Positions 1 to 55,127 are shown, numbered from the stretch's first letter. The stretch: 64,000 bases of DNA from a virus (IMGVR_UViG_3300037067_006949:32001-96000); one strand, 5' to 3'. The notes: generated from the letters alone by a model not told the origin. Translations and numbers: made by a program.

Positions 1-174
1 CCAGTCAAAAAGAGATGCCATATGGAAAAAGATATGATTGGATATTATCAAACTATTGGCGAGATAAACGGAATTACTTATGCAAGAGATACGTACATGG
101 CACTAATGGAATTGAAATATCAAATTGTCATTTCCGGCATAAAATGAACCTTTTAAGTAAGGGAGAAAAAAATA

Positions 175-396
175 ATGAACTTTGAAAATATGGTAAAGAT
201 GTTTCAAGTTTCAGATTATATATTTGCCGTTTTTAGTGGTGGAACACACGATGGCCAAAGAATTAAGCTTGATTCTATTAAGGCGACGATTTGGTTCTCA
301 AAACCACTAGAAGTCTATTCCTTTAGCTATCTTTGCTACGATAATACTTGGGCGTTTAAATTGATCGAAAATGAAAAAGGAGGAGACCATGGATAA
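175..396 (+). CDS. hypothetical protein
   Basis: ORF with GGGAG RBS directly after site 138. Confidence 0.6.
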   Translation: MNFENMVKMFQVSDYIFAVFSGGTHDGQRIKLDSIKATIWFSKPLEVYSFSYLCYDNTWAFKLIENEKGGDHG

Positions 397-652
397 GATT
401 TTGAACGAAGTCAAAGAAATGCGCAAAGAATTTCTGGATAACTTATTGCTTGATCAACTTCATAGCAAATCTTATATTGATGAGAAATGCACGAAATGTG
501 CTTTTCATAGTGAGATTTTCCATAACAATCGTGTGATCCATCTTTGTAATGATGTATGGTCTGGAGACTGGCATGTTGGGAAGCACATTTTTTATTCTGA
601 AACAAAGGATATTTGTATAGAATGCGATGGGTTTAAGGACAAAAATGGATAA
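389..652 (+). CDS. hypothetical Cys-rich protein
   Basis: AGGAG RBS before ATG 389; CxxC motifs. Confidence 0.6.
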   Translation: MDKILNEVKEMRKEFLDNLLLDQLHSKSYIDEKCTKCAFHSEIFHNNRVIHLCNDVWSGDWHVGKHIFYSETKDICIECDGFKDKNG

Positions 653-1088
653 AATTGAACTAGCAAAGTCGTTTGCTTATATATATCATAGAGATCAAAA
701 ATATGGTGAAGAACCTTATTACAATCACTTATGGCGAGTTTTTGATGCTGTAAAGAAGGCTGGTTATGGAGAAGATTATCAAATTGTAGCTTTGCTTCAT
801 GATTCTGTTGAAGACACTAGTATGAGTTATGAGACAATTGAGAGAAATTTTGGCGTTGAAATAGCAGGTGATATTGCATCTATTACCCATATAGAGCGCG
901 AAAAATACTTTGATTATATTCGAGAATCCGTGATGCATAACGAGGTTGCCAAAGTAGTTAAGTTCTTTGACTTGATGGACAATCTTGAGCATGGTTTCTT
1001 GAATGAAAAATACGCCTCTTTAATTCCGAGATATAAAAAAGCGTTACAGATTATGACTTTGGGAGATGTGAAATGGGAAGACAAATAG
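645..1088 (+). CDS. HD-domain small alarmone ((p)ppGpp) hydrolase, RelA/SpoT HD/Mesh1-like
   Basis: Motifs HRDQKYG..PY..HL, ALLHDSVEDT and VKFFDLMDNL, typical of SpoT-type HD hydrolases. Confidence 0.8.
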   Translation: MDKIELAKSFAYIYHRDQKYGEEPYYNHLWRVFDAVKKAGYGEDYQIVALLHDSVEDTSMSYETIERNFGVEIAGDIASITHIEREKYFDYIRESVMHNEVAKVVKFFDLMDNLEHGFLNEKYASLIPRYKKALQIMTLGDVKWEDK

Positions 1089-1390
1089 CAAAACAACCTA
1101 ATGGTTTATATGCGGTATGGTCTAGTATTGCTGACGATTTTATTGTTGAGGACGCAACAGAAGAAGAGATTCGCAATTGGTGGATAAAAGATGCTATTGA
1201 GGATGCAACTGAAAGGGCTAATAGAAGTTTAAACGATTCGTTTATGAGAATTGAGAAAAATGGTACAGATAATTGGGGAGATGACTACAAATATCTGTCA
1301 GAAATTCGTGATGAAGTTCATGGAGAACATAACAATTGCGACGCTTGCGATTTAGATTATCCTATTTGTAATAATTGTTTAGGCGCTTAA
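1073..1390 (+). CDS. hypothetical protein
   Basis: ORF in co-oriented operon. Confidence 0.65.
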   Translation: MGRQIAKQPNGLYAVWSSIADDFIVEDATEEEIRNWWIKDAIEDATERANRSLNDSFMRIEKNGTDNWGDDYKYLSEIRDEVHGEHNNCDACDLDYPICNNCLGA

Positions 1391-1399
1391 GGAGATTTT

Positions 1400-2973: not shown

Positions 2974-3017
2974 CTTTATGCTTAAAACAATTATTCTATG
3001 TAAGTTTTTGGTGACAA

Positions 3018-3197
3018 ATGAGAATAAAAAACAATAAAATGATAAAAAGAAAGACGACAATAAGAATAGATCAAACTTGTTCTGTTTGTCTAGGCGCTAT
3101 TATAAGGGGTTCAGACGTTTGGGTAATAAGTAATTTGCGTGGCAAAAATAGAAAATATTATCACATTGAATGCGGAGACAACATAAATGAGTTTTGA
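3018..3197 (+). CDS. small zinc-finger protein (CxxC...HxxC), paralog of 4802..5005
   Basis: Manual translation MRIKNNKMIKRKTTIRIDQTCSVC...KNRKYYHIECG. Confidence 0.6.
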   Translation: MRIKNNKMIKRKTTIRIDQTCSVCLGAIIRGSDVWVISNLRGKNRKYYHIECGDNINEF

Positions 3198-4305
3198 ACA
3201 ATACAATAATACAATTATTCAAGGAAATGTTTTAGAAGTATTAAGGTCTTTACCATCAAATTTTATAAATATGATTATCACCAGTCCTCCATATTGGGGA
3301 TTGCGAGATTATGGTCTGCCAGATGCAATTTGGGGCGGAAATCCTGATTGCAATCATAATTGGATTGAAAATGTGAGGCATCCTGCTGGCGGAATGGGGA
3401 GTAAGGGTGCTAATGTTGGCGCTAATAGGAACGATTTTGCCAACATGAGAGATCATGACGTGATCAGTAACACTTGTGTAAAATGTGGCGCATGGAAAGG
3501 ACAATTGGGGCAAGAACCAGACTTTCACGATTACATAAAGCATTTGGTTGAAATTTTCAATGAAGCTGGTAGAACCATGGTAGATGATGGCTCCCTATGG
3601 GTAAATTTGGGTGATAGTTATGCTGGAAGTAATCAAGGTTCTGGCACAGAAAAAATAAGCGATAAACAAAAAAGTAATCGTGGCACAAATTATATGAATA
3701 CCTTAAATCACAAAAGTATTTTATCCAAAATTGATGTTCGTTCTAAATCTCTCGTTGGCATTCCAGATCGTTTCAAAGTTGCTATGATTGATTCTGGATG
3801 GATTTGCCGTAACGAAATTATATGGCACAAGCCAAATCAAATGCCATCGTCCGTCAAAGATCGTTTTACTGTTGATTTTGAGAAATTTTATTTTTTCACT
3901 AAGAATGAAAAATATTATTTCGAACAACAGCTAGAAGAGAGCGAATGGGCGAAGATAGATAAACGGGCCGAAACTGGAGCAACTCTTGGTCAAAAAGGTT
4001 CTCAGGGAGGGTATGCACAAAACGAATCTGGAAAATACAGAAAAGACAAGATGCGGAATATGCGTTGTGTGTGGAGCATAAACACCAAACCGCTTAAAGA
4101 GGCTCATTTTGCCGTTTATCCAGAGGGATTGATTGAAACTCCAATTAAAGCTTGTTGCCCTAAAAATGGCATTGTTTTAGACCCATTTTTCGGTTCTGGA
4201 ACATCTGGATTGTCATCTAAGAAATTGGGCAGAAATTATATCGGAATTGATCTCAATCCTGATTATATTGAAATTGCAAGAAATAGAATAGATAAAGTCA
4301 CATAA
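3187..4305 (+). CDS. DNA amino-methyltransferase (N4-C/N6-A, beta class)
   Basis: TSPPY catalytic motif near N-terminus; DPFFGSGT SAM-binding motif near C-terminus. Confidence 0.9.
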   Translation: MSFEQYNNTIIQGNVLEVLRSLPSNFINMIITSPPYWGLRDYGLPDAIWGGNPDCNHNWIENVRHPAGGMGSKGANVGANRNDFANMRDHDVISNTCVKCGAWKGQLGQEPDFHDYIKHLVEIFNEAGRTMVDDGSLWVNLGDSYAGSNQGSGTEKISDKQKSNRGTNYMNTLNHKSILSKIDVRSKSLVGIPDRFKVAMIDSGWICRNEIIWHKPNQMPSSVKDRFTVDFEKFYFFTKNEKYYFEQQLEESEWAKIDKRAETGATLGQKGSQGGYAQNESGKYRKDKMRNMRCVWSINTKPLKEAHFAVYPEGLIETPIKACCPKNGIVLDPFFGSGTSGLSSKKLGRNYIGIDLNPDYIEIARNRIDKVT

Positions 4306-4338
4306 AATTCGAGTTTTAAGCAGATTTAAGGAGAAAAT

Positions 4339-4734
4339 ATGAAAATAGAAAAGAATTTTGTTACATTTTTAAGCCCAGGGACATTTTTTAGCGAAGAAAC
4401 AGTTAAAGAAATTGATTCTTGGGACGTAAATAAGGCGGTAGAAATGTCTAAAAATATTGTAGAACGTTATGATGCAACGCCTTATGCGTTTTATTTTACG
4501 ACTCGTGCTAGAGATGATTATGATCTTGATAGTAAACAGATTGATGAAAGCGTTATATATTATCTGGGCGGTGAAATTCGTAGTTTGAAAGACGTTGAAT
4601 TAGAGCTTAATCCAGACAATAATATTCTTATTGAAAATATGAGAAACAATGGTTACAAAAGAGTAATTACCAATTCTGGAAAGTGGAAGAGTGTGCATCC
4701 ACTTAAGGACGGCGATATTGTTTTACAGTATTAA
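4339..4734 (+). CDS. hypothetical protein
   Basis: AAGGAG RBS; between sites 4301 and 4741. Confidence 0.7.
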   Translation: MKIEKNFVTFLSPGTFFSEETVKEIDSWDVNKAVEMSKNIVERYDATPYAFYFTTRARDDYDLDSKQIDESVIYYLGGEIRSLKDVELELNPDNNILIENMRNNGYKRVITNSGKWKSVHPLKDGDIVLQY

Positions 4735-4801
4735 AATTTACATAAAATCTTAGTTTTAAGCATAACACATAGAATTTCAATTTTAAGTAAAGGTGGTTTT
4801 C

Positions 4802-5005
4802 ATGACTATCAAAAATGATAAAATTATTATTAGAAAAATTACGACTAGGGAAAACCAGTTCTGTAATTGGTGTGGAATGGAGATTCCAGAATACACAAAA
4901 GTCATTCTTGCTAGTGATAACAAGGGGAATAACAGAAAATATTATCACATTGAGTGTATAGAAGAAGAGATCAAAACAATCGAGTTCTATCATAAAAATC
5001 CTTGA
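4802..5005 (+). CDS. small zinc-finger protein (CxxC...HxxC), paralog of 3018..3197
   Basis: CNWC...NRKYYHIEC. Confidence 0.6.
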   Translation: MTIKNDKIIIRKITTRENQFCNWCGMEIPEYTKVILASDNKGNNRKYYHIECIEEEIKTIEFYHKNP

Positions 5006-5030
5006 CAGAATGATGGATGTGTGGTAAGAT
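5002..5030 (+). promoter_or_regulatory. sigma70-type promoter with extended -10
   Basis: TTGACA-17 nt-TAAGAT with TG upstream of -10. Confidence 0.75.
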
Positions 5031-5368
5031 TATAGACATTGGAGGGAGATATTATGTTCAAGATTCCTGGAGATTTCAAACCTAGTTTGTTACTGAAAAT
5101 ACTTTGGTATGTGAGCGATATGTTGCTGGTGATTATTGTTACTCTTTTCACACTATTTATGTTTGAATTGATTTTTGGAGTATAATTATGAAATACACAT
5201 CTAAACAATGTAAATATTGCAAAAACGTTTCAAAACTTGATAAAAATGGTAACGTTTACTATGCTGGTGGCATAATGCATAATTCCTGTTGGTATTGTGG
5301 AACGTCTTTTGGAAGTCAACATTGTTTAAAGTTGCTTAAAAATTAGATTTTATGTAAAAGGAGGAAAT

Positions 5369-5674
5369 ATGGGTGAATTTAAAGGAACAAAAATAGGTGA
5401 ATGTGCCGGAAGTTTTGAAACTTTGGTTATGCGTCCTTCATTTCATCAAGATGACATCTTTGATCAGGTAATTTATGTTGCTGAATCTGAAGATACGGTA
5501 TCCGTGGCAAGTTTGCAATATTATGACAGGAAGAACAATACCGGAAGTCAATATTCACATTTTTGGTTCACTCCAGAAGAGATTGATATTTTGGTAAAAG
5601 CTCTTCTTGAAGCAAAGGAAAAGGTTGTCAACGCATTGTCAATACAAAGTGAAAATATTGTCAATACAAAATAA
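5369..5674 (+). CDS. hypothetical protein
   Basis: AGGAGG RBS after site 5335. Confidence 0.7.
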   Translation: MGEFKGTKIGECAGSFETLVMRPSFHQDDIFDQVIYVAESEDTVSVASLQYYDRKNNTGSQYSHFWFTPEEIDILVKALLEAKEKVVNALSIQSENIVNTK

Positions 5675-5803
5675 AAGATTGCGAGGACAATAATGATTGC
5701 AAGAATAAAATCTTGGATGTATGATCAGATGTGGAAATTGATTAAATTTATAACAGAATGTATTTCTGAAGAATTACAATAAAAGACTTGTTTTAAGGAG
5801 AAT

Positions 5804-6082
5804 ATGATGAATTTTATTGAAAAAATTAGGAATGCCATTGGGGATGACATGGAAGTTGTCAGATTTGCCTTTTGGAATAAGGAAATGGCAGTTTATTTGT
5901 GGGAAAAAGAAATTCCAATTTCTGTATTCCCATTTCAAGAATCAAGCTATGACAATATTGTTCTTGATGTGGAGGGATATGAATGGAAATTGACTACATT
6001 CCAAGTTGAAAAAATTGGTGAGGTTATGAATATCTTGAGAGAAAGCATAACCGAAATTAGAGAATTGACAAAAGATTTATAA
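5804..6082 (+). CDS. hypothetical protein
   Basis: RBS AAGGAG formed by right arm of site 5778. Confidence 0.7.
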   Translation: MMNFIEKIRNAIGDDMEVVRFAFWNKEMAVYLWEKEIPISVFPFQESSYDNIVLDVEGYEWKLTTFQVEKIGEVMNILRESITEIRELTKDL

Positions 6083-6118
6083 CAAAACTAAGAAAGAAAA
6101 TATGAGAGGAGAAAAACA

Positions 6119-6376
6119 ATGGTTAGGAATTTGAGCATTACATGGGAAGACAAAAACAAGTGGATTGATATTGATGGTCGTAAAGGATTCAATATCCTTT
6201 ATAGTAGCGTACCAACGGGTTATGGTATGCAATGCAATTATGATGAAGCTGACGATTCTAAGGAGTATAAAATGGTGCTAGATGTTCTCAAAAATATTAG
6301 GGATAATGTTTCCAAATTAATCGAACTCAACGAAACTCCATTTGAAAAAGACACCGAAGGTTTGACTTACGAATAA
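6119..6376 (+). CDS. hypothetical protein
   Basis: GAGGAG RBS. Confidence 0.65.
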   Translation: MVRNLSITWEDKNKWIDIDGRKGFNILYSSVPTGYGMQCNYDEADDSKEYKMVLDVLKNIRDNVSKLIELNETPFEKDTEGLTYE

Positions 6377-6407
6377 AAATTACTTAAAATTGATCTTTTA
6401 AGCATAA

Positions 6408-6761
6408 ATGTTACATTCGCGCTTATCCAGACGAAAATATAAGCGCAGAAGGAACAGAGGAATGAAAATTCAATATTGCTTTCTATCATGGCTCGATTCT
6501 ATTTTGAGTGGATGGATACCCGTCAAACGAAGGCTACCGCGACATAAACATAAATCAGTAACGCTTGGCATACTTTGCTTCTGCTTACTTGATGGCTATT
6601 ATCCAGCCGTGTGTTTATTTTCTTCGGCAGATAAAAAGTGGTTCAGGGAAAATAGTCATGAAGATATTACAGAAAATGTAACTCACTGGAAGTCCTCTGT
6701 TACCCCTCCAATATTTTTCACTGAATGGATAATAAACAAGAGGAGGAACAACAATGAGTAA
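6408..6761 (+). CDS. hypothetical protein (start uncertain)
   Basis: ORF after site 6383. Confidence 0.5.
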   Translation: MLHSRLSRRKYKRRRNRGMKIQYCFLSWLDSILSGWIPVKRRLPRHKHKSVTLGILCFCLLDGYYPAVCLFSSADKKWFRENSHEDITENVTHWKSSVTPPIFFTEWIINKRRNNNE

Positions 6762-6990
6762 ACCAGAATCTTATCATCTTAATAATGGATGTTGGAACTG
6801 TAGGTTTAAAAGCAGAACTTCAATTGTATATGACACATTTTGCATATTCGGAAATGAATATGCAAAATTCTACGATTTGGACGACATAGAAGATGATGAT
6901 GAATGGGAGAAAAAAAGAAGATTAAATTCTGAATATACCAAAAGGTGTACGGCTAAACCATATGGGCATTGTGATGAGTGGAAAATTTAA
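6754..6990 (+). CDS. hypothetical Cys-rich protein
   Basis: AGGAGG RBS. Confidence 0.6.
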   Translation: MSKPESYHLNNGCWNCRFKSRTSIVYDTFCIFGNEYAKFYDLDDIEDDDEWEKKRRLNSEYTKRCTAKPYGHCDEWKI

Positions 6991-7002
6991 GGAGAATGAA
7001 TA

Positions 7003-7362
7003 ATGAGTTTTATACAAAAATTAATTGATGATACTAATAAAGGTGATTGGGATTTTTATTGGAAGTATAACGAAGGATCGGACACTTTTACTTTGAATAA
7101 ACCCAAACATTATTTGACTGGATTGAATTTTACAACCGCCAATAAAAGCAAATCTGTTATTTTTCCTAATGGGTCAGAATTGTTTACTGAGCAATTGGGC
7201 AATCTTGAAACCGCCGTTAGATCGTCTTTATTGAGTACGATGAATCAAAGCATTGAAATGTATTTGGCAAATAAAGAGTTGACTCCAGATCAAGAAGCAA
7301 TTTTGGCTGAACAAGAAAGCAAAAAGAATGCGGTGGAACCCAAAGCAAAAGTAGAAAAATAA
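7003..7362 (+). CDS. hypothetical protein
   Basis: AAGGAG RBS. Confidence 0.7.
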   Translation: MSFIQKLIDDTNKGDWDFYWKYNEGSDTFTLNKPKHYLTGLNFTTANKSKSVIFPNGSELFTEQLGNLETAVRSSLLSTMNQSIEMYLANKELTPDQEAILAEQESKKNAVEPKAKVEK

Positions 7363-7363
7363 T

Positions 7364-7696
7364 ATGCTAAAAGTGTATACGTCTCAATATAAATATGATG
7401 GCGAAAATCGCCTTGACATTACGGTAAAGACTGGTTTGCAGATGTTTGCGCCCACATGGGATATGGTAAATGGAGTAAAAAGAGAAGAATCATATTCTCA
7501 TGAGAAATATACCAAAGAATATTATGAAAAAATGCGCACGTCTTATAAAACGCATAGGCTGGAGTGGGATTGGCTTTTGAAACAGGATAGAGTGGTTCTT
7601 GTGTGTTTTTGTAAAGCCGGAGATTTTTGCCATAGATTACTTTTGGCTGATATATTAGTAAAATTGGGCGCAAAATATATAGGAGAAATTCCTTAA
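7364..7696 (+). CDS. DUF488-like protein
   Basis: APT motif and C-terminal LVCFC...FCHRLLLA pattern typical of DUF488 families. Confidence 0.6.
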   Translation: MLKVYTSQYKYDGENRLDITVKTGLQMFAPTWDMVNGVKREESYSHEKYTKEYYEKMRTSYKTHRLEWDWLLKQDRVVLVCFCKAGDFCHRLLLADILVKLGAKYIGEIP

Positions 7697-7892
7697 AAGG
7701 AACTTTATGTATAAAGAAGTCATAGTTTATTTAAAAGATGGCACTAAAGACCTTATTGATCCGGTAAACAGCAAAGAAGATGTAAAATATTATGATGATG
7801 TAATCATTATTAGTAACGGATATAATGATTATGAATATGACAAAAGCAAAGTTGATAAAATTGAAATTATAGATATTGTTTAGGGAGAAACT

Positions 7893-8483
7893 ATGCAAGA
7901 CAGAGAAGTAAAACATCCAAGCGAAATGACTAGAGAAGAATTGCTAGATTTAGTATGGCAAATGAGTTCTTCGGCTTTAGATTTGGCACAGCATCTTGAA
8001 AGTACGGAATGGTTAAAGGTTCAGTACAGGAAAAAATGCTATGAACGCGCTATTCAAATGGCTTGGCAAATTTGTAATGCATGGGAGTACGAGCGTAAAG
8101 AGGGCAATATGCAAATCGCATATTTCGGCGGAAACGGATTGGAAGTTATTAACGGAGATGTTTCTCAATTAGTAGATGGAACGTTGCCGACTTCTGCGCC
8201 TGATGAAGATAAAGAATTAGATTACAATGATTTTGAACAGTTATATATGGCATTAGATGGTTGGATTCCTTCTGAACAAGAGATAAAAGAACTTGATAAT
8301 CATTTCAAATATTTCAGAGAATTAACAGAAGATAAAGTGGGAAAAGATCACGTTGATGTAAAGGTTAAAACTTTGAATAGAATGGCGTATAAATCTGAAT
8401 TTATACACGACTTGGCCAAGGCGAGTAGAAAATTGTTAGACATGATCGACAAAGACGCATGGATACCAAAAACATTGGATTAA
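7893..8483 (+). CDS. hypothetical protein
   Basis: GGGAG RBS, 196 aa ORF. Confidence 0.7.
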   Translation: MQDREVKHPSEMTREELLDLVWQMSSSALDLAQHLESTEWLKVQYRKKCYERAIQMAWQICNAWEYERKEGNMQIAYFGGNGLEVINGDVSQLVDGTLPTSAPDEDKELDYNDFEQLYMALDGWIPSEQEIKELDNHFKYFRELTEDKVGKDHVDVKVKTLNRMAYKSEFIHDLAKASRKLLDMIDKDAWIPKTLD

Positions 8484-8496
8484 GAGGAGATTTATT

Positions 8497-8727
8497 TTGA
8501 TTAACGTTTGGGTTTTTATTATAGCATGTGTTATTTTTATTGGTATTTTAATCAGAGAATTTTTACACGACAAAGATATGGAAGACAAATATAAAGCCTT
8601 GCAAGAGGCTAACGAAGGTTTGATAATGGTTTTAGGATATTATTCCATGCGCTTTGGACAAATTACAACTGAAGACCTTACAAATATGGTAGGGATTGAG
8701 GCAGAAAAGTTGAGGTTAAAAAAATGA
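8497..8727 (+). CDS. small membrane protein
   Basis: N-terminal hydrophobic helix; GAGGAG RBS. Confidence 0.6.
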   Translation: MINVWVFIIACVIFIGILIREFLHDKDMEDKYKALQEANEGLIMVLGYYSMRFGQITTEDLTNMVGIEAEKLRLKK

Positions 8728-9326
8728 ATGGTGTAGACAAAATAAATACGTTCAAAAAAGAATTAGAATTTGTTAAAAATCCGCAAATCAAGTTGTTTGC
8801 AGAAAAGGCAATTGAAAGTTTGCCAGACTACTTTTTTACGATTCCTGCATCAAGTACGGGTAAATATCATCCGTCTTATGCGCTTGGCGACGGAGGCCTT
8901 GTTAGGCACACAATTGCAGCCGTAAGGATCGCTATCGAATTATTCAGAACTGGATTATGGAAATTCACCGACGATCATAAAGATTTGATTTTGGTTGGAC
9001 TTATTCTTCACGATGGATTCAAGTCTGGTAGCCCTCAAGAAAAGTATAGCAAAACAGATCATCCCAAAATCGTTTCATATGAAATTTCTCACAACGAATC
9101 ATTGAAAGGTTTGATTCCGCAAGAACAGATGGATTATTTGTTGAGTAACATAGCAACGCACATGGGACGTTGGGTTTTTGACTATAAAACCAAAGAAAAA
9201 GTTTTGGAAGAACCGAAAACTCCATCACAAATATTTACTCATCTTGCAGATTATCTTGCCAGTCGTAAGCAATTAGAATTCAATTTTGACGTAGAAATTT
9301 CAAAAGAGGACGAGCCAAAGGCATAA
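8724..9326 (+). CDS. HD-domain phosphohydrolase (YhaM-like HD domain)
   Basis: PAS..GKYHP...GGLVRHT, LHDGFK, HMG, HLADYLAS. Confidence 0.8.
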   Translation: MNGVDKINTFKKELEFVKNPQIKLFAEKAIESLPDYFFTIPASSTGKYHPSYALGDGGLVRHTIAAVRIAIELFRTGLWKFTDDHKDLILVGLILHDGFKSGSPQEKYSKTDHPKIVSYEISHNESLKGLIPQEQMDYLLSNIATHMGRWVFDYKTKEKVLEEPKTPSQIFTHLADYLASRKQLEFNFDVEISKEDEPKA

Positions 9327-9327
9327 C

Positions 9328-9672
9328 GTGACTATTAAGTGGAAAATATTCTTATTTTTTAGCGACATATCTAGATGGATTTACCGTTTGATATGGAAAA
9401 TATGTCATATAAGGTTGTATAAAAATCCAGAGAAATATATACCAAAGGATATGCCATATTGTTATGAATACACTGGAGAAATGATTACCAGATCAGTACC
9501 GTGGGGATTAGATCAATGGGGAAGAAAAAGATTTATTGATGCTTCTTTTACAGAAACTAAGCCTTGCATTTTTCACAAAAATTTATGGAATTTAGATTTA
9601 TGTATGTTTAATGGAAGTGATTGTTGCATGGATTCTTGTAAAACTTGCGGAATAAATGACTATTTAGATTAA
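9328..9672 (+). CDS. hypothetical Cys-rich protein
   Basis: ORF in operon. Confidence 0.55.
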   Translation: MTIKWKIFLFFSDISRWIYRLIWKICHIRLYKNPEKYIPKDMPYCYEYTGEMITRSVPWGLDQWGRKRFIDASFTETKPCIFHKNLWNLDLCMFNGSDCCMDSCKTCGINDYLD

Positions 9673-9690
9673 TTTTCATAAGGAGATAAA

Positions 9691-9981
9691 ATGAGTGCTG
9701 ATACCGGAATTTATATTGCTAAATTTCCAGAAGGTTATAGAGTAACCGAAGTCGTTCAATGTATTGAAAATGTTTATTATTATAATCCTGGCACAAAAAG
9801 ACGTAAAAAAGAATTGGAAGCATATTTTGGCAATAGTGAAGTTTATCCGACGCGAGAACTTGCGTCTAGTAAGGCTTGGAAAATCTATGATGAGTACAAT
9901 CGTGAAGAAGAAGATTCTGGGATGGGATGCCCAATCGAATATGGCATTAGCTATATTGGTGAATATGAAAGTTTTGAATAA
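9691..9981 (+). CDS. hypothetical protein
   Basis: AAGGAG RBS; stop in left arm of site 9977. Confidence 0.7.
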   Translation: MSADTGIYIAKFPEGYRVTEVVQCIENVYYYNPGTKRRKKELEAYFGNSEVYPTRELASSKAWKIYDEYNREEEDSGMGCPIEYGISYIGEYESFE

Positions 9982-10011
9982 AACTGGCATTTTAAGCAAA
10001 TTTGGAGGATA

Positions 10012-11043
10012 ATGAATTATAACGAAATTATAAATACACATTATACAATTTTGGAATCTTTACCTGAAGAAGAAATTTATAATGTTGTTACAACTTTGAT
10101 TGAACATTATCGTGAATACGGATTTCCTTATTTTGAAATAGATAAAAATAAAATTAAAAAAGAATACAAATCGTTATCGAAATCTGATTCTTCAAAAATA
10201 GAATTGCCAAACAATGAATTGCAACAAGGAATGTTGGGATTGGCTACTTGTAACATGTTTCATCCAGAAATGTACTCTACGCATTGTAAAAGCGCCAAAT
10301 CTCCTATGGACGTATTTTTAGATGATAAGTTGTTTAGGGTTGCACTTATAAAAAGAATAAAATATAATGATCGTAATATCAATCCTTCATGTGTACGCAG
10401 AACCCTAACAGCTTTTGGTGCTCAAGCGGTTTCCAATTTCCGCCCATCTATTGCGAAATGGGTATATCAAAAATATTGTCTTTCAGGCGGTAAAGTTTTA
10501 GACCCATGCATGGGTTATGGAGGAAGATTGATGGGCGCATTTTGTTCTCATGTAAGCTCTTACACGGGGGTTGATCCTAACCAAGATGCGTTCAATGGTA
10601 ACAAAAATCTTTATCAAAGTTTGGTTGACTCTGCTGAAAATAACGTTTATCCAAAAATGAATTTTTATAATTTGCCATTTGAAGATTTTGAAGAAGTTGA
10701 AAAATATAATTTAGTTTTTACTTCGCCTCCATATTTTAATATTGAAAAATATTCTAATGAAGAAACTCAATCTTATTTACGTTACCCGTTATATTCAGAA
10801 TGGCGAGATAAATTTTTAAAGATTTTAATCAGTAAATCTTTTGAATACTTAGAGAATGGTGGCTATCTAGTTTTGAATGTTGGAAAGCCCGTTGATGAAG
10901 ACACAAAAGAAATCGGATCGAGCATTTTTGGAAGGCATCCAGAAGTTTATCACATGAGATTGAGTAAGCTTCTTGGTCAAGGAAATAAATCGGATGTAAG
11001 TCATAAAACGGAGCCAATATTTGTGTGGCAAAAACTTACATAA
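10012..11043 (+). CDS. DNA amino-methyltransferase (SAM motif before TSPPY)
   Basis: LDPCMGYGGR then FTSPPYF; bounded by sites 9977 and 11039. Confidence 0.85.
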   Translation: MNYNEIINTHYTILESLPEEEIYNVVTTLIEHYREYGFPYFEIDKNKIKKEYKSLSKSDSSKIELPNNELQQGMLGLATCNMFHPEMYSTHCKSAKSPMDVFLDDKLFRVALIKRIKYNDRNINPSCVRRTLTAFGAQAVSNFRPSIAKWVYQKYCLSGGKVLDPCMGYGGRLMGAFCSHVSSYTGVDPNQDAFNGNKNLYQSLVDSAENNVYPKMNFYNLPFEDFEEVEKYNLVFTSPPYFNIEKYSNEETQSYLRYPLYSEWRDKFLKILISKSFEYLENGGYLVLNVGKPVDEDTKEIGSSIFGRHPEVYHMRLSKLLGQGNKSDVSHKTEPIFVWQKLT

Positions 11044-11077
11044 AAATTACATTTTAAGTAAAAAATAAGGAGAAAAA

Positions 11078-11284
11078 ATGTTAAATATTACTTATGATTC
11101 AAATAGACCCATTGAAGAAGGGCAATATTATGTTGAACTTGCTTATTTTGTTGATGGCGGATATGGGGCGTCACATTTAAACAATTTGGGATATTGGTGC
11201 GATAAAGAACATTTAAAAGAGGCAATTGTAAAACCAGCACTAAAAGCTGTCAGCAATGACATTTTGGATAAAATTTTAGATTAA
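11078..11284 (+). CDS. hypothetical protein
   Basis: AAGGAG RBS; between sites 11039 and 11291. Confidence 0.65.
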   Translation: MLNITYDSNRPIEEGQYYVELAYFVDGGYGASHLNNLGYWCDKEHLKEAIVKPALKAVSNDILDKILD

Positions 11285-13786: not shown

Positions 13787-13788
13787 TG

Positions 13789-43916: not shown

Positions 43917-43919
43917 GAT

Positions 43920-44564: not shown

Positions 44565-45360
44565 CAAAGATCGCGCTATGCAATGCGATTTGGCTATAAA
44601 CTCATTGAAAGAAAATTGCATTGGAGAACATAAGGTTCACGTCCTCTATGCTTGTTCTAATAAAAGACATGAAGAATCTTATAAAACTTTGATGAACGAG
44701 CATCCGCAAATATTCTTTCATAAAGAAAATAACTTCAAGTTGGATTTGTTAGAATTGGTAAAAGATCAAGATTATGTAATGTTTTTAGTCGATGACAATA
44801 TATTTACCAATAACTTTAATGTATACCACATCTTACGTTTGCTAAACGCTCATCCAGAGTCAATCGGATTCAGCCTAAGACTAGGGGTAAATACCACATA
44901 TTGCTACTCGTTAGATCAGGAACAAGAAATCCCTCCGTGTGTGAAGTTGGCTGACAATATTTTGATGTTCGGATGGGGCGAAGCAAAAGCTGATTTCAAT
45001 TATCCCTTGGAGTTGTCAAGCAGCATCTACAAAGTCAAAAATATATTACCAATATTAAATAATACAGATTATAGTAATCCTAATGGCTTGGAATGGAATA
45101 TGGCGTGTAGTTCTCCAATGTTCAAATCTACTAAACCCATGCTTATGTGCTACGAACAAAGTGTAGCCTTTTGCAACCCAATTAACAAAACACAAAGAGT
45201 CAACAACAATAGAAGCGGAACCAATATTCAATATTCAATAGATTCACTCTTGACAAATTTTGAAAAGCGTGGTAAGATTATATATTCCCCATTCAAAGGT
45301 TTTATTTCTAATGCTTGTCATCAAGAAGTTGATATTATCATAAATTATAAGGAGAGATAA
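44545..45360 (+). CDS. putative GT-A glycosyltransferase
   Basis: FSKDRAMQ, FLVDD, FSLRLG. Confidence 0.6.
   Translation: MITILFSKDRAMQCDLAINSLKENCIGEHKVHVLYACSNKRHEESYKTLMNEHPQIFFHKENNFKLDLLELVKDQDYVMFLVDDNIFTNNFNVYHILRLLNAHPESIGFSLRLGVNTTYCYSLDQEQEIPPCVKLADNILMFGWGEAKADFNYPLELSSSIYKVKNILPILNNTDYSNPNGLEWNMACSSPMFKSTKPMLMCYEQSVAFCNPINKTQRVNNNRSGTNIQYSIDSLLTNFEKRGKIIYSPFKGFISNACHQEVDIIINYKER
45250..45278 (+). promoter_or_regulatory. internal sigma70-type promoter
   Basis: TTGACA-17-TAAGAT with TG upstream. Confidence 0.6.
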
Positions 45361-45704
45361 TGGAAGACGATAATAAAGCTAGTTTTATTGTGGTGGTTCA
45401 AAACGATGAATTGACTATTGATACCGTAATGAAAGATATTCTTGAAGATTTCATGCCTGATGACGAATTGATTGTTGTACTAAATAATAGCACAGATTCA
45501 AGCGAGTCAAAAATTGATAAATATTTGCCAAAACTTCCTAATACTTATACAAAAATTATTCATGCAGATTCAAGAGAAGATAGGGCGTTCGATATTAAAG
45601 AGGCTTTGGATGTTGGCAAAGAAAATTCAAGTAATGATTTGAATTTCATTATTTATGGAACGGAATATAACCCCGTAGAGTGGACAAAGGATGACAATAA
45701 TTGA
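45360..45704 (+). CDS. short GT2-like N-terminal domain protein
   Basis: SFIVVVQN, ELIVVLNNSTD. Confidence 0.55.
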   Translation: MEDDNKASFIVVVQNDELTIDTVMKDILEDFMPDDELIVVLNNSTDSSESKIDKYLPKLPNTYTKIIHADSREDRAFDIKEALDVGKENSSNDLNFIIYGTEYNPVEWTKDDNN

Positions 45705-46467
45705 ACAATTAACGGATAAAGATTTAAAAAGATTTTGGTCTAAAGTTGATAAAAGAGGAGAAAACGATTGTTGGGAATGGAGGGGGTGCAAAACAGCAAA
45801 AGGAGCTGGAATATTTTGTGCATCAATTAATAATATCAATAAAAGCATTACTGCTCATCATGTTTCCTATTATATTGTAAGTGGAATAGATGCATTTGAT
45901 AAGCCAATGGAAAAATATTGCAACACAATAGGATGTTGCAACCCGAATCATTATGGGATAAAAATTAAAAAAACCATAAAAGATTTTAAAATAGATGAAA
46001 AATTTATGCAAAGGTTTTGGAAAAAAGTAAGAGTCGGCAACCACAATGGTTGCTGGGAGTGGATGGCATCAAAGGACTATAAGGGCTACGGACAATTTAG
46101 TGTAAATGGGAAAAGTATTCGATCTCATAGAATTTCATATATGATAAAAAATGGAATTGGTAGCATTCCATCTGGAATGTCTGTTTGTCATAGTTGTGAT
46201 AATAGATTATGTTGTAATCCAAAGCATTTGTTTCTAGGAACATATGAAGATAATAACCATGACAGACATAAAAAGGGAAGAGACGGTTCTGCAAAAGGGG
46301 AAGCTCATGGTGCTGCAAAGTTAAATAATGAAAAAGTTTTGGAAATAAGGTATTTATTACAATTGTCTTCTTTATCAAGAACAGAAATTGCAAAATTATA
46401 TAGTGTAAGTAAATCTACGATAAATAGAATATCAACTGGAGAAGGATGGAAAAATATAACCATATGA
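45691..46467 (+). CDS. HNH endonuclease with duplicated RFW.KV...CWEW module
   Basis: VCHSCDNRLCCNPKHL; C-terminal HTH. Confidence 0.85.
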   Translation: MTIIEQLTDKDLKRFWSKVDKRGENDCWEWRGCKTAKGAGIFCASINNINKSITAHHVSYYIVSGIDAFDKPMEKYCNTIGCCNPNHYGIKIKKTIKDFKIDEKFMQRFWKKVRVGNHNGCWEWMASKDYKGYGQFSVNGKSIRSHRISYMIKNGIGSIPSGMSVCHSCDNRLCCNPKHLFLGTYEDNNHDRHKKGRDGSAKGEAHGAAKLNNEKVLEIRYLLQLSSLSRTEIAKLYSVSKSTINRISTGEGWKNITI

Positions 46468-47300
46468 GTAGAAATAATAATAAAAGATATGCAAAAAATT
46501 CTAATCCTCTTATTTCCGTCCTAATTCCTTGTTACGGAAGAAAAGAATGGATTCCCCTTACAATTGAATCTTTGCTAAACCAGACTTATGCTAATTGGGA
46601 GGGAATATTCGTACAAGACGGAGGCGAAGATATTGATGATGTTCTCGCCAAATATCCAGATAAAAGATTCAAATTGATCAAACACGAAAAAAACAAAGGG
46701 CTTCCGGCGGCAAGAAATACCGCATTAAGAAACTGCAATGGTGAATATATTTCCCTTCTCGATAGTGACGACATTTATATGCCATTAGCATTAGAATTTA
46801 GATTGTCTATGCTAAAAAAATATAATGTTGAATGCGTTTATACCAGAGCGTTACAAAACATATTTGAAACTAAATTTAATGAATCTGGTCAAAAATATTA
46901 TCAACTAGTTCATCAACAATTATACTGGAACCAAGAATTTGATAGAGATAGGTTGTTGGCCGTTAATTTATGCCCTTGCAATTGTACTCTTATCTCTCGC
47001 AAAGCATGGGAAGATTCTGAATATTGGTTCGATGAAGAATTAAAGACGGGAGAAGATTTTGATTTTTGGATAGCAATATCTAGAAAATATGATTTTAAAA
47101 GTTTAAGATTACTAGATTGTGAAGATTCATATCGCACCGAATCTGGTGGTCAAATGACAAGTAATAGAAATTTTTCAGCAGACTTGCCAAGAATTTTTAA
47201 ACGATGGAGGAATACGGCAACTAATTTGCCTCTCGTCATTGAAATGCAAAATAGTATCTTGAAACAGTCGGGAATCAATCCAGAAGATTACGACCTATGA
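46464..47300 (+). CDS. glycosyltransferase family 2
   Basis: ISVLIPCY, NKGLPAARN, LLDSDD, EDFDFW. Confidence 0.88.
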   Translation: MSRNNNKRYAKNSNPLISVLIPCYGRKEWIPLTIESLLNQTYANWEGIFVQDGGEDIDDVLAKYPDKRFKLIKHEKNKGLPAARNTALRNCNGEYISLLDSDDIYMPLALEFRLSMLKKYNVECVYTRALQNIFETKFNESGQKYYQLVHQQLYWNQEFDRDRLLAVNLCPCNCTLISRKAWEDSEYWFDEELKTGEDFDFWIAISRKYDFKSLRLLDCEDSYRTESGGQMTSNRNFSADLPRIFKRWRNTATNLPLVIEMQNSILKQSGINPEDYDL

Positions 47301-47391
47301 CGCCCCTTATATGGTTTTATGGAGGAGTATTGTCTTTAATAATTAGCGCAATCATTGCATCAAAACATCAAAGAAAGTGAGGTAGGATTTA

Positions 47392-48492
47392 TTGAAAGTT
47401 TTATACGTATATGCGGATCAACCCCATGAGCTTAATTGTTCGGTTTTCAACTGTTTCAACCCAACAGATGCAATAAATAAAACGGGAGTTCACACAGCAA
47501 GTTATATACACGTAGATCAGTTCGTTAAAAATGAACCAGAAACACAAAAACTTTGTTCTGAAGCCGACATTATTATTATAGAAAGAAATTTTTTCCAAGA
47601 TGTTTCAACTATGGAGGTTTTTTGGTGGGTTAGAGGAAAAATTTTAGCTGGTATTTGGGATGACGGATATAGCGTAATGCATCAAAGAAATCCGGCATAT
47701 CCATTTTGGAATAATGGCGAAATAAAATATGTTTTAAAAGACGATCCAAAGGTAGAGCACGTTGGTTATATGTCTCCAAAGCCATTGACCCAAATGAAAT
47801 ATTCTCTCCATTTTTTAAAGGGTGCTCAAGTGGTTTCGGACGCTCTAGTAGAAGACTGGTCGCCTTTTGTAGATTGTTACAAGATCAACAATCACATTGT
47901 TATTGACCGTTATACCAACGTAACAGAGCCATTATATCCTCATGATGGAATTTGGATAGGCTGGACGGGTTCTTTGTCACATAGAGATTCATTTGAATCG
48001 TCCGGTTTGCTTCGTGCTTATCGTAAAATTTGCAAGAATTTTCCCAATGTAAAAGTTTTGATTACTGGCGACAAAAGAATATATGATGAATTGGATGTTC
48101 CTAACACAAGAAAAATGTTTAGCGGATATGTACCAGCAGAGCAATATCCATCATTGATTAAAAGTCTCGATATTTGTACAATTCCATTAGCCGGAGAATA
48201 TGATAAGAGGCGTAGCCAAATCAAACCATTAGAATGCCTAGCACTCAAAGTTCCATTTGTAGCAACCAACTTTCCGAACTACAATCATCTTGCTCCATAT
48301 GGAGTATTCACAGAAAATGGTTGGGAAAATTGGGAAAACGCTATTGCAGAATCGTTAGAAAAACTTCCAGACCTTCGAGAAAAAGCAGTTGAAGTTGGGT
48401 ATCCATTCGCACTAACGCAAGATATTGATCTACACGTGCAAGAAAGAATTGACCTGTATCAGATGTTGATAGACAAACCGTATAGATATTAG
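47392..48492 (+). CDS. GT-B (GT4-like) glycosyltransferase
   Basis: IGWTGS..H, LDI...PL, KPLE...L.VP.VAT. Confidence 0.75.
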   Translation: MKVLYVYADQPHELNCSVFNCFNPTDAINKTGVHTASYIHVDQFVKNEPETQKLCSEADIIIIERNFFQDVSTMEVFWWVRGKILAGIWDDGYSVMHQRNPAYPFWNNGEIKYVLKDDPKVEHVGYMSPKPLTQMKYSLHFLKGAQVVSDALVEDWSPFVDCYKINNHIVIDRYTNVTEPLYPHDGIWIGWTGSLSHRDSFESSGLLRAYRKICKNFPNVKVLITGDKRIYDELDVPNTRKMFSGYVPAEQYPSLIKSLDICTIPLAGEYDKRRSQIKPLECLALKVPFVATNFPNYNHLAPYGVFTENGWENWENAIAESLEKLPDLREKAVEVGYPFALTQDIDLHVQERIDLYQMLIDKPYRY

Positions 48493-52835: not shown

Positions 52836-52844
52836 ATTTTCGTT

Positions 52845-54122
52845 CTATTTTATATCCAACTCTGGATGGGCATCACGGATAGCACGTAACGAAGCTTTCT
52901 CCGCATCAGAAAAAATAGGTTTTTGTTCTGGAGGTGCAAGCTTCAACATATAATTCGTAGAATTTACCACCCACCTCTGAATATTTGGATCAATTCTCCA
53001 CATCTTATTGACCAAATCTACAGCATAAACACTTACTATATTTTCAACCGATAAATCCATTTTAATATCAATGCCAAGTTCATTTCTAGTGTCAACTGGT
53101 TTAATGCAAACAGCTCTAAACATCTCTGGAAGTGCAGGAACTACAGGAGGAGGCGGTGGGGGCGGAACAATCTTTTCCATATAACTAGGCGAACTTACGA
53201 CCCATCTCTGGATATCAAGCGGAGCAATCCTCCACATTCCATCCGATCTTTCCTCATATACGTTTACATAGTCTCCAACCCTTAAATCCATTTTAATGTC
53301 AACGCCAATTTCGTTTCTGGTATCGACTGGCTGAATACATTTTGCCAAGAATAGAGCATCAGGGTCTTTTTCTGGAACAACATTTGTAACTTCTCCACCG
53401 CTATACAAATCCCACTCATCAACAGTCCCCAAGAACACATTTAGATCAAGTCCTTTTGTTTCAAATCCAAGAATCAATCCTTCGGGAATACCGTCATTAT
53501 TTATATCGCCATCACTAGCATATTGCCAAATAATAACCTTTCCCCTCCATCCAGCAGCTTTTACAGCGTCTACAATGTTCTGGTAAGTAATTAATTTGTT
53601 ATACCATGCAATCCATAAAGTCCTGTCTTTTGCCCAATCATCAAATGAACTGAGTAAACTTGGAGAAGTATATATTTCAGTATATTTACCAGAAAGAACA
53701 TCATACGTTTCACAATATGATTTCATAATTGTATTAAAGCTTGCCCTATGTGAAGAAATCAAACCTCCATAAGTGCTGGCTTCGCAATCTAGGGCGATAG
53801 GCATTGAGCTTGGATCAGATTTCAACAAATTCCAGCATGTTTCTGCTTGAATTTCTCCCCATTCGGCATCAGTCGTTGTCGTATATCGGTTAGAATAATA
53901 ATCCCCATACCAATACGTCTTGCGTTTGAATTTTCCTTTTGATTCATTCCAGAACCATTTGAATGCCCGATCTTCGACCAGACCATATCCAACACGTACT
54001 ATAAAACCTTGTATGCCTATCGCTTGCAGCATATCTAATTCTGGTTTATATGCCGTATCTGGATTGTCTTGGTATTGCGAAACATCCACCAATCGTACCG
54101 GATAATCTCTAAACGTTGTCAT
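52845..54122 (-). CDS. endolysin, GH25 muramidase with two C-terminal repeat domains
   Basis: DVSQYQ, LDCE, IYTS, LWIAWY, IWQY, DLN; repeats split by poly-Pro linker. Confidence 0.85.
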   Translation of the reverse strand: MTTFRDYPVRLVDVSQYQDNPDTAYKPELDMLQAIGIQGFIVRVGYGLVEDRAFKWFWNESKGKFKRKTYWYGDYYSNRYTTTTDAEWGEIQAETCWNLLKSDPSSMPIALDCEASTYGGLISSHRASFNTIMKSYCETYDVLSGKYTEIYTSPSLLSSFDDWAKDRTLWIAWYNKLITYQNIVDAVKAAGWRGKVIIWQYASDGDINNDGIPEGLILGFETKGLDLNVFLGTVDEWDLYSGGEVTNVVPEKDPDALFLAKCIQPVDTRNEIGVDIKMDLRVGDYVNVYEERSDGMWRIAPLDIQRWVVSSPSYMEKIVPPPPPPPVVPALPEMFRAVCIKPVDTRNELGIDIKMDLSVENIVSVYAVDLVNKMWRIDPNIQRWVVNSTNYMLKLAPPEQKPIFSDAEKASLRAIRDAHPELDIK

Positions 54123-54636
54123 TGCCTCTCCTATTATTTTTTTGTTTTGATATCTTATCGCAATCCACCATACCCATATTTACAGATGACATCGGCGTTA
54201 GATTTTCTCTTCGCATTTGTTCAATAAGGGTCTTATTATATTGTTCCGAATTGTTCAATTTGCATTCGAGAATTGAAATCGTTCTGCTCTGTTCCTCTAT
54301 TTTTATGTCTTGCAAATCCAATCTCTCACTTTGAGTTGTGATTGTATTTGCTTGTTTACGAATTATTTCTTCCTGGACATCTACTTTATCTTCTAATGCG
54401 TTCAACCTTTTATTTACCTCTATGGTTTCTAACGCGGTTTCAGTAGCGAGGCCTTTATATAACTTGGCAATATCCGCCTCTTTACTTTCATTGCTCAAGT
54501 CTGCACCTTTCAATTCTTTAGGAAACATTTTTTTGGAGCGAATAATCGCATATACAGATGCAACAAGCGATACTAAACCTACTCCAAAAATGCCAACTAC
54601 CCAATATATTAAACCTTGAATTTGCGTAATGTCCAT
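54109..54636 (-). CDS. membrane-anchored coiled-coil lysis protein (holin/spanin-like)
   Basis: N-terminal TM helix plus coiled coil; next to endolysin. Confidence 0.5.
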   Translation of the reverse strand: MDITQIQGLIYWVVGIFGVGLVSLVASVYAIIRSKKMFPKELKGADLSNESKEADIAKLYKGLATETALETIEVNKRLNALEDKVDVQEEIIRKQANTITTQSERLDLQDIKIEEQSRTISILECKLNNSEQYNKTLIEQMRRENLTPMSSVNMGMVDCDKISKQKNNRRGNDNV

Positions 54637-54977
54637 TTTTCATTGCCTCCATCTTTTAACGAAGTTAATCTTGCTCTGGCGCTAGAGGCAAAAGCCCCGC
54701 CCATTAGGATCATTAATGGTCTCATAATAAGCAATCCATAAGGGCTTACATCGACAGGATTGCCAATAATATGTTCTACGATTAAGAAAATGTACGATAT
54801 TGTAGCTAATCCACAAACAATTGCAGAAAAGGCTTTTATCCAAGAGTACATTTGTCTTTTAGATAATAACAAAAATTCAATATTCCAATATGTGGCAAAA
54901 CTAAAAATAATAGCCCCACATATCATCATTATGAATCCAAATATAGTAAGAAAGTCATTCAAAGCGTCAAAACTCAT
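54609..54977 (-). CDS. putative holin (3 TM)
   Basis: Three hydrophobic segments; basic C-terminus; lysis context. Confidence 0.5.
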   Translation of the reverse strand: MSFDALNDFLTIFGFIMMICGAIIFSFATYWNIEFLLLSKRQMYSWIKAFSAIVCGLATISYIFLIVEHIIGNPVDVSPYGLLIMRPLMILMGGAFASSARARLTSLKDGGNEKWTLRKFKV

Positions 54978-55107
54978 ATAATATCCTCCTACCGATAATA
55001 AATATATGTTTTAGAAAATTTTTTCACGGTTCCTCCATTTTACAAAATTGCATAATACATATAGGTGGTACAATTTTTTATACCACCATATATACTGTTA
55101 AAATCTG

Positions 55108-55127
55108 CTTAAAAGTATAATTTTATG
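55108..55127 (-). repeat. isolated copy of the 20-bp palindromic site
   Basis: Minus strand reads CATAAAA-TTATAC-TTTTAAG-CAGATTT, 4 nt after the tail-fibre stop. Confidence 0.85.

Follow-up and report, generated by a model that had tools for sequence, protein, structure and literature searches.

The chromosomal dif site, on which XerC and XerD (CodV and RipX in Bacillus) act, has inverted arms ending in ATAA beside an asymmetric 6-bp centre, and integron cassettes, handled by IntI, are small promoterless genes in one orientation, with an imperfect palindrome at or near the stop codon and a tyrosine recombinase nearby. An element that recalls both recurs in the DNA analysed here, a stretch of 64,000 nt (the window, by which we mean the whole of it) that covers bases 32001–96000 of the 125,426-bp linear virus record IMGVR_UViG_3300037067_006949, with a completeness estimate of 91%. 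The element is a palindrome with the core TAAAA-N6-TTTTA, whose six central nucleotides we call the spacer, and the gene content of the record is that of a large siphovirus of the SPbeta kind. The reading that best fits the strict geometry of the palindromes, their asymmetric and mutually unlike centres, their enrichment at mosaic junctions and the presence of recombinases is that they are tyrosine-recombinase core sites at cassette boundaries, with exchange gated by the identity of the 6-bp centre; we give it a probability of roughly 0.45.

A chromosome has a single dif site, with longer and specific arms and a function in dimer resolution, whereas the phage has tens of sites with TAAAA cores. 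The integron attC is about 57–141 bp long, with paired core sites and extrahelical bases, is read by its structure as a folded single strand and inserts at attI beside the Pc promoter; in contrast, the phage element spans 20–28 bp with conserved arm sequences, and no attI was identified, although none was specifically sought. The dif modules of Acinetobacter are alike in carrying many sites (pdif, acted on by XerC/XerD) per replicon, with inverted arms and a variable 6-bp spacer, which bound accessory gene modules; exchange between them is reported to be gated by the identity of the 6-bp centre (PMC13141974). Their arms are distinct for XerC and XerD, their enzymes are those of the host and their orientation alternates round the modules, whereas the phage arms are near-symmetric and AT-rich, the sites follow transcription and lie at single-gene boundaries, the candidate enzyme is phage-encoded and exchange is proposed from sequence comparisons.

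Two phage systems also come close. The PeSLs of T4-type phages, as described in two reports (PMC2839356; PMC4122927), are short conserved intergenic repeats among small non-essential genes and act as points of insertion, deletion and replacement; they comprise a sigma-70-like promoter and a terminator stem-loop and are shuffled by homologous recombination, whereas the palindrome has no sigma-70-like promoter inside the repeat and no stable terminating stem-loop, and its variable centre shows selection for uniqueness. SPBRE, from SPbeta and phi3T, belongs to the same phage family and is likewise an AT-rich intergenic repeat of ATAAAA tracts with an integrase-fold reader, MrpR/SroF; as reported (PMC10516654; bioRxiv 10.1101/2025.11.27.690993), it is a direct-repeat box, bound by a monomer, with about 10 sites, while the palindrome has another sequence and 30–37 copies in SPbeta-like phages. 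Identity with SPBRE was rejected: the published 26-bp SroF box differs in sequence and the boxes of SPBc2 are separate elements, with the palindrome abutting SPBRE-like boxes at 2 of 14 places and lying 45 nt away at a third. We did not find the palindrome described in the searchable literature, which did not include the SPbeta genome paper of 1999.

The window contains 24 exact copies of the core against 1.21 expected, a number reached in none of 100 shuffles, and the whole record contains 46, against 9 for the reversed control. Spacing is strict, with those 46 copies at N6 and 0–4 at each of N2–N5 and N7–N11 in the whole genome; a centre of fixed length between two inverted arms is the layout of tyrosine-recombinase core sites of the Xer/Cre type (6–8 bp). 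Together with 11 one-mismatch sites chosen by their flanks, the exact copies make up an accepted set of 57 sites in the genome, with the consensus aa.T..CATAAAA(t)nnnn(a)TTTTAAG yAaA along transcription. There are two types of half-site, (C/A/G)ATAAAA (type A) and CTTAAAA (type B), and variants of either arm appear independently, each half-site degenerating separately. The 31 window sites from which the earlier note had worked are all present at the coordinates and with the spacers and arm variants it reported, and its mirrored arms were confirmed: CATAGAA and CATGAAA, found on the left, return on the right as TTCTATG at 2994 and TTTCATG at 17958. The orientation classes that it distinguished hold for the accepted set, in which 34 sites have type A upstream and type B downstream along transcription, 4 are reversed (binomial p = 6e-7) and 19 are symmetric; each transcription block thus has one orientation, as opposed to the alternating XerC/D-XerD/C arrangement of pdif, and in the minus-strand late block the orientation is flipped to match.

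The sites lie at the borders of genes. The whole spacer is outside the called open reading frames (ORFs) in 41 of the 57, the upstream stop codon is inside the site in 18 (in 11 of these it is the TAA or TGA of the left arm) and at most 30 nt upstream in a further 24, and the next start codon follows at a median distance of 18 nt. Thirty of the 31 window sites occur before 28.7 kb, among small unknown genes, in a genome that is 89.5% coding. SPBc2 shares this layout, although its arms read AATAAAA where those of this phage read CATAAAA, with the left-arm TAA serving as the stop codon of yorT, mtbP, yorZ, yosC, yosF, yosR, yoqG, yoqS and yoqY; within the 50 kb inspected, an annotated stem_loop of this genome covers a site once (116406–116431).

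The same core was counted in related genomes, with the reversed-pattern control in brackets. It is abundant in the phages BUCT082, with 37 sites (0), SPBc2, with 34 (2), c-st, with 31 (7), and phi3T, with 30 (2), as well as in several of the metagenomic kin found via the polymerase (G001–G005), with 57 (3) in G001, 32 (5) in G002 and 29 (6) in G005; G007:C29 has 59, with no control figure. G003 and G004 have only 7 (0) and 4 (0), respectively, and there is no excess of sites in three other phages bearing YonO, PMBT24 with 0 (6), TR-TP1 with 4 (5) and MT835481 with 4 (1). A search of the intergenic gaps of G003 for a substitute palindrome found none and, therefore, a close relative can express its genes without the element. 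Two host-like bins gave 118 matches against a control of 129 and 97 against 68, the excess being clustered on the phage contig C29; since these bins are at control level outside that contig, the palindrome is a phage feature and not a host-wide signal. An exact-motif scan of viral contigs gave mostly lone chance matches among the matches listed. In a polymerase comparison the nearest named phage was Bacillus phage BUCT082 (35% identity), followed by Clostridium phage c-st, Enterocloster and Thomasclavelia phages and SPbeta/phi3T, and single-protein scans with the Xer-like protein or the YonO-like polymerase of this phage (see below) returned no close kin.

The earlier note had stressed that no two spacers of the window are identical. 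All 31 are indeed distinct, but this in itself is not a signal, as 3561 of 5000 position-preserving shuffles likewise lacked an identical pair. A pattern emerges when the exact sites of five genomes (this phage, SPBc2, G001, G002 and G005), oriented with transcription, are pooled: within genomes, pairs of spacers alike at five or more of the six positions (near-pairs) number 26 against 57.0 expected (sd 7.8), with none of 1000 shuffles as low, and there are no identical pairs against 4.1 expected (13 of 1000). The depletion survives null models that keep the strong/weak pattern or the G+C count (26 against 54.3 and 53.5, 0 of 1000 for each), and is not seen in control hexamers from the flanks, since two upstream controls gave 67 against 55.4 and 49 against 46.1, and the region of the ribosome-binding site was enriched. 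Pairs drawn from different genomes were normal, with 188 near-pairs against 198.7 expected and 15 identical pairs against 13.5. By genome, near-pairs numbered 10 against 16.8 in this phage (108 of 2000 shuffles as low), 0 against 5.5 in SPBc2 (5 of 2000), 9 against 22.5 in G001 (1 of 2000), 4 against 6.0 in G002 (558 of 2000) and 3 against 6.1 in G005 (253 of 2000); the repulsion is weak in this phage itself and the case therefore rests on the family. Four further genomes were tested in either orientation: like spacers were depleted in G007:C29 (9 against 33.6 expected, 0 of 1000), and c-st (4 against 7.1), BUCT082 (10 against 12.7) and phi3T (6 against 9.4) deviated in the same direction without significance, BUCT082 and phi3T not being independent of SPBc2.

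The centres are also never palindromic, with none among the five pooled genomes against 5.15 expected (5 of 1000) and none in G007:C29, c-st, BUCT082 or phi3T, whereas flanking controls had 4–7 against 4.6–5.6 and 6-bp palindromes occur genome-wide at 0.76–0.82 of expectation; an asymmetric central region is likewise a property of tyrosine-recombinase core sites. Likeness of spacers to the reverse complement of other spacers is lowered as well (29 against 40.7 expected). The 26 near-pairs that remain have their single mismatch at position 1 in 1 case against 7.8 expected, and at position 6 in 5 against 5.6, a hint, from small numbers, that the position of the mismatch matters. The homology-tolerant recombinase of the Tn916 kind that had been offered as one explanation is unsupported: like spacers repel one another and, therefore, spacer likeness matters. 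The alternative offered with it, that unique spacers act as addresses, fared better at the level of the family, through the spacer repulsion, the lack of palindromic centres and the junction evidence that follows, but not in the window alone.

Comparison of SPBc2, phi3T and BUCT082 yielded 92 orthologous pairs of sites with at least one homologous 40-nt flank, allowing up to one mismatch in the core, so that some are chance matches inside genes. Both flanks are shared in 55 pairs, only the left in 17 and only the right in 20. Most one-sided pairs keep an identical spacer (14 of the 17 left-only and 16 of the 20 right-only, 30 of 37 in all), and in these the differences begin in the arm on the unlike side. 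In SPBc2, the sites at 87599 and 88400 enclose an insert, while phi3T has a single site at 80190 whose left side is that of 87599 and whose spacer and right side are those of 88400; from its sequence, this resembles the outcome of cassette gain or loss between a pair of sites, with a hybrid site left behind. A test on gene boundaries, which controls for being intergenic, showed that those with the motif in SPBc2 were junctions in 16 cases, conserved in 8 and absent in 12, compared with 43, 104 and 79 for boundaries without it, an enrichment of junctions with an odds ratio of 4.8 (p = 0.0008); phi3T versus BUCT082 gave the same direction without significance (4 and 3 against 23 and 57, p = 0.20). 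A spacer that appears inverted between SPBc2 99498 and phi3T 89340 is probably a coincidence, because the flanks are unrelated.

Variants of this phage were sought by comparing contigs of four DNA runs with window positions 3001–23000. Run X2 joins 11309 to 12616 through 7 intervening letters, which removes the four genes between two sites, and in run X3 a replacement begins 3 nt past the site at 16147. Another metagenome variant lacks 18691–21971, the stretch that holds tRNA-His and the gene for the Xer-like protein.

The phage encodes two tyrosine recombinases with their catalytic residues in place, neither of which is tied to the sites. The Xer-like protein (18857–19753, plus strand; 298 aa) has the residues R, K, HxxR, H and Y in a residue check and matches XerA/XerD better than IntI4, but its homologues in the five kin genomes tested are weak or absent. 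The position of its gene beside tRNA-His makes it a likelier candidate for the phage integrase than for the enzyme of the sites. The YomM-like protein (341 aa; genome 3133–4158, outside the window) is conserved in this phage, SPBc2, phi3T, BUCT082, G001–G005 and MT835481; of the seven motif-rich genomes tested, c-st was the only one in which it went undetected, and the motif-free YonO phages PMBT24 and TR-TP1 likewise gave no match. The residues R, K, HxxR, W/H and Y are kept in the clade of this phage, and in SPbeta-like phages the gene is within the late operon. Phyletic profiling for a cognate factor left only YomM, polymerases and structural genes as shared. We infer that a recombinase, and not general homologous recombination, performs the exchange, and the YomM-like protein is the candidate for this enzyme.

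If the palindromes are recombination sites, each would consist of two inverted (A/T)TAAAA arms, extended by weaker flanks to about 11 bp, with a 6-bp overlap region between them. A dimer of the phage recombinase would bind every site, and strand exchange would finish only when both 6-bp centres match. With centres that are all different and asymmetric, the approximately 57 sites could not delete or invert their own genome against each other, but the same site on a co-infecting relative or a sister copy could be exchanged, so that entire genes would be swapped at points that fall precisely between a stop codon and the ribosome-binding site that follows. With somewhat less than even confidence, we extend this to SPbeta-like phages at large, including SPbeta and phi3T, which may carry a grid of spacer-addressed sites where a YomM-type enzyme exchanges DNA only between matching 6-bp centres. 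It has long been asked how large phages can shuffle small accessory genes and yet leave them intact, and the answers so far have been homologous recombination at regulatory repeats such as PeSLs and relaxed annealing proteins. Site-specific, address-gated exchange would be a third mechanism, extending the logic of dif modules from plasmids to viruses: co-infecting relatives would trade single genes at gene boundaries while their own genome is protected from self-deletion, and YomM, a conserved recombinase of unknown role, would gain a function.

Several observations weigh against gated recombination as we propose it. The window alone shows no repulsion of spacers (7 near-identical pairs against 5.1 expected) and the genome alone is marginal, as seen above; besides, selection against ectopic homologous recombination between repeats of 20–28 bp could also make spacers repel each other. 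The orthologous site pairs and the junction tests come from three related genomes and are not independent, and part of the junction excess is due to selection, because only exchange at boundaries leaves genes intact. Metagenome joints near sites are few and short-sided, most joints having about 21–28 letters per side and lying away from sites; by a hand count, 5 of about 52 joint endpoints are at most 10 nt from a site against about 2.4 expected, a weak excess. As for the enzyme, box II of YomM is HxxK instead of HxxR in SPBc2 and BUCT082, and the distributions of protein and motif match imperfectly, since G003, G004 and MT835481 have YomM with only 4–7 sites and c-st has 31 sites with no detectable YomM. 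Finally, the orientation of sites along transcription (34 against 4) and their closeness to stop codons and ribosome-binding sites could also be explained by a role in gene expression.

The main rival of gated recombination, in our opinion less probable, is that the palindrome is an operator through which a conserved dimeric DNA-binding protein of the phage regulates expression, for instance as a roadblock that silences early genes; this protein might have a tyrosine-recombinase fold like MrpR/SroF. Exchange and spacer diversity would then be by-products, because repeats of 20–28 bp invite homologous recombination and copies that are too alike would be purged. The dyad symmetry that an operator of a dimeric factor should have is present, with half-sites that degenerate independently; the sites are phage-specific, lie just ahead of ribosome-binding sites and follow transcription, and the phage encodes a Sak4-like annealing protein. 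There is also precedent for an integrase-fold repressor that reads ATAAAA tracts in SPbeta-like phages (PMC10516654; bioRxiv 10.1101/2025.11.27.690993) and for regulatory repeats that became shuffling points, the PeSLs (PMC2839356). However, Pfam and PHROG scans of the ORFs, including 106 small ORFs against Pfam, found no sigma factor and no helix-turn-helix or other cognate regulator. An operator does not predict that like spacers repel, that centres are never palindromic (0 against 5.15) or, small as the numbers are, that a single spacer mismatch should protect depending on the end where it lies. Furthermore, SPBc2 tolerates direct repeats of the SPBRE type with cores of 14–16 identical bases, which makes it less plausible that short repeats are purged in general; the genes of G003 function with no such element, and it is rare for an operator sequence to remain constant between phages whose polymerases share 24% identity. 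The plain operator that the earlier note had left open has the symmetry in its favour, but does not predict the asymmetry and mutual avoidance of the centres.

An improbable alternative is that the palindrome acts as nucleic acid, either as a phage promoter starting near the right arm or, in RNA, as a hairpin or a signal for processing immediately ahead of the ribosome-binding site. This agrees with the fixed position, a median of 18 nt ahead of start codons, with the −10-like TAAAAT formed by the left arm and the T that follows, with the order terminator-motif-gene at genome position 104160 and with the right arm abutting the Shine-Dalgarno sequence in G001. Nevertheless, a sigma-70 promoter was rejected, as no −35 is conserved and promoter-like matches are not in excess (109 against 97.4), and in SPBc2 the site before yosX is downstream of a consensus TATAAT, in the leader. 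A YonO promoter was also rejected: a published study places the YonO transcription start in SPbeta upstream of yonK and reports that deletion of yonO silences late genes only (PMC5467207), and in BUCT082 the region upstream of yonK, where by analogy with SPbeta the promoter is expected, does not contain the motif. Old GenBank promoter annotations for the methylase genes of SPR, rho11s and H2 are predictions and were of no help. A stable RNA hairpin was discarded on the basis of folding energies from −0.3 to −2.6 kcal/mol, with z near 0 in 5 of 6 cases tested; arm variants show no compensatory changes, A.C-type pairs occur beside G.U-type ones (counts of G.U versus A.C gave no clear result) and an Rfam search found tRNAs only, with no family matching the palindrome. 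Neither promoter nor RNA model predicts spacer repulsion.

The phage has, in addition, a separate family of promoter repeats (D2), cTTGACA-N17-TGgTAAGATtATA, in five copies that are 71–82% alike over 34 nt (5001–5034, 13788–13821, 18790–18823, 24198–24231 and 45249–45282), with TTGACA, 17 nt and a TG-extended −10; these look like its own strong sigma-A promoters with an extended −10, and their existence is a further point against the palindrome as a promoter.

It is very improbable that host recombinases of the XerC/XerD type use the sites, as with pdif, in place of a phage enzyme: the 11-6-11-like layout, the retention of the motif in phages that infect different Firmicutes, which a conserved host enzyme would permit, and its presence in c-st without a YomM-like gene agree with this, but the arms appear unlike those of Firmicutes dif, host-like bins show no enrichment outside the phage contig and the kin phages G003 and G004 largely lack the motif. 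Even if the idea of a recombinase fails, the repulsion of spacers within genomes and a palindrome found family-wide at gene boundaries still need explaining.

The individual sites of the window are given here by arm combination; all are on the plus strand except one. The commonest arms, CATAAAA and TTTTAAG, flank the spacers tgaacc (138–157, 17 nt ahead of a start codon at 175), ttcgag (4301–4320, where the left-arm TAA is the stop codon of a methylase gene), tcttag (4741–4760), attaca (11039–11058, the left-arm TAA again being the upstream stop), gtaaaa (14915–14934), taacag (16147–16166, after which the following gene is replaced from 16169 in run X3), tgaagt (18405–18424), agtata (23707–23726) and taatgc (28634–28653), the final site of the dense block, ahead of the primase-helicase gene. 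The same arms, in a minus-strand reading, flank ttatac at 55108–55127, in the minus-strand late block. AATAAAA with TTTTAAG is found around gacttg (5778–5797, with a ribosome-binding site that overlaps the end of the right arm), ctggca (9977–9996), tagaga (20612–20631), taacaa (20839–20858) and tcatac (25313–25332, upstream stop in the left-arm TAA). Also ending in TTTTAAG are CATAGAA with tttcaa (4768–4787) and with tttatg (21422–21441), GATAAAA with tgagaa (21170–21189), TATAGAA with tgcaca (26395–26414) and CATGAAA with tatcaa (11962–11981), whose TGA is the stop codon of the Mom-like gene.

The right arm is TTTTATG in AATAAAA with tggtta (2487–2506, where the left-arm TAA ends an RNA-ligase gene), AATAAAA with gaacgc (11291–11310, at the left end of the 11309 to 12616 joint of run X2) and CATGAAA with ttgtat (25125–25144); other combinations are ATTAAAA, tagttc and TTTTAAT (2790–2809, upstream stop in the left-arm TAA), CATAAAA, gagaga and TTCTATT (16999–17018) and AATAAAA, tccgac and TTTCATG (17945–17964). 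Arm order is reversed in three sites that begin with CTTAAAA: caatta with TTCTATG (2981–3000, with one core mismatch), attaga with TTTTATG (5335–5354) and ggtaaa with TTTTATT (12623–12642, at the right end of the X2 joint). Two sites have type B on both sides, CTTAAAA and TTTTAAG, around ttgatc (6383–6402) and actaga (22797–22816). Beyond these 31, the window contains one exact core inside a glycosyltransferase gene (GATAAAA, tacaaa, TTTTATG; 39539–39558), a doubtful site that may be due to chance, and three degenerate candidates ahead of ribosome-binding sites: GATAAAA, ttgaaa, TTATAGA (7854–7873), GATTAAA, agtaaa, TTTTAAG (12169–12188, repeat family D1) and CTTAAAT, ttatta, TTTTAAA (25502–25521).

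Two pairs of sites deserve mention. Those within 4291–4327 and 21412–21448 (repeat family D4) have flanks 84% alike over 37 nt and spacers that differ at 3 of 6 positions, and look like a duplicated site whose spacer is the most diverged part. The sites at 4741–4787 are in tandem, with 7 nt between them, like an empty cassette position; the variant in run X2 makes a similar close pair by loss of 11310–12615.

Among the genes of the window are those for a PolIII-alpha polymerase, a primase-helicase, several DNA methylases, a Mom-like protein and a block of sugar-nucleotide and glycosyltransferase functions, while beyond it the record encodes a YonO-like RNA polymerase, an HU-like protein and the second tyrosine recombinase. 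The YonO-like protein (917 aa; genome 6170–8923, minus strand) is a two-barrel RNA polymerase (Pfam RdRP, CDFDGD motif) whose neighbours are a 263-aa protein that only BUCT082 shares and the HU-like protein, in a gene order identical to that of BUCT082. There are genes for tRNA-His (gtg; 18716–18790), tRNA-Ile (tat; 24399–24473) and an unusual tRNA-like RNA whose anticodon call has two bases (25237–25308); tRNA-His immediately precedes the Xer-like recombinase gene, and the ORF called at 18691–18855 is actually this tRNA. The overlapping ORFs 21504–21980 and 21937–22440 correspond to the N- and C-terminal halves of the radical-SAM family phrog_9298 and may represent a frameshift or a split gene.

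Some of the relatives contain other repeated or unusual elements. In the AT-rich G002 and G005 (loci L208–L221), a second conserved element, approximately TAATAAATTAATAGAA, stands at many genes about 10 nt past the palindrome, ahead of the ribosome-binding site (e.g., G002 108741, 111949 and 113721), in a position that recalls that of SPBRE in SPbeta. G003 (loci L193–L194) has tandem, iteron-like arrays of TTGTCCACGTTTTTTGTGGACAAG with a 41-nt period at 118153–118376 and 126558–126658, near both ends of the record, which may be an origin or a packaging region. BUCT082 (loci L122/L128) has a G+C-rich, structured-looking gap of 1.7 kb between the HU-like gene and yonK (7240–8960); it lies where, in SPbeta, an unannotated non-coding RNA and the YonO start site are reported by Forrest et al.

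DNA-modification genes are abundant in the window (11334–11966, 3187–4305, 10012–11043, 14939–16156, 22422–22808 and 35265–48492), and include those for the Mom-like protein, three N6/N4 methylases, a nucleoside 2-deoxyribosyltransferase-like protein, a dTDP-sugar pathway and about eight glycosyltransferases; because of this heavy load, they suggest that the DNA of the phage is hypermodified.

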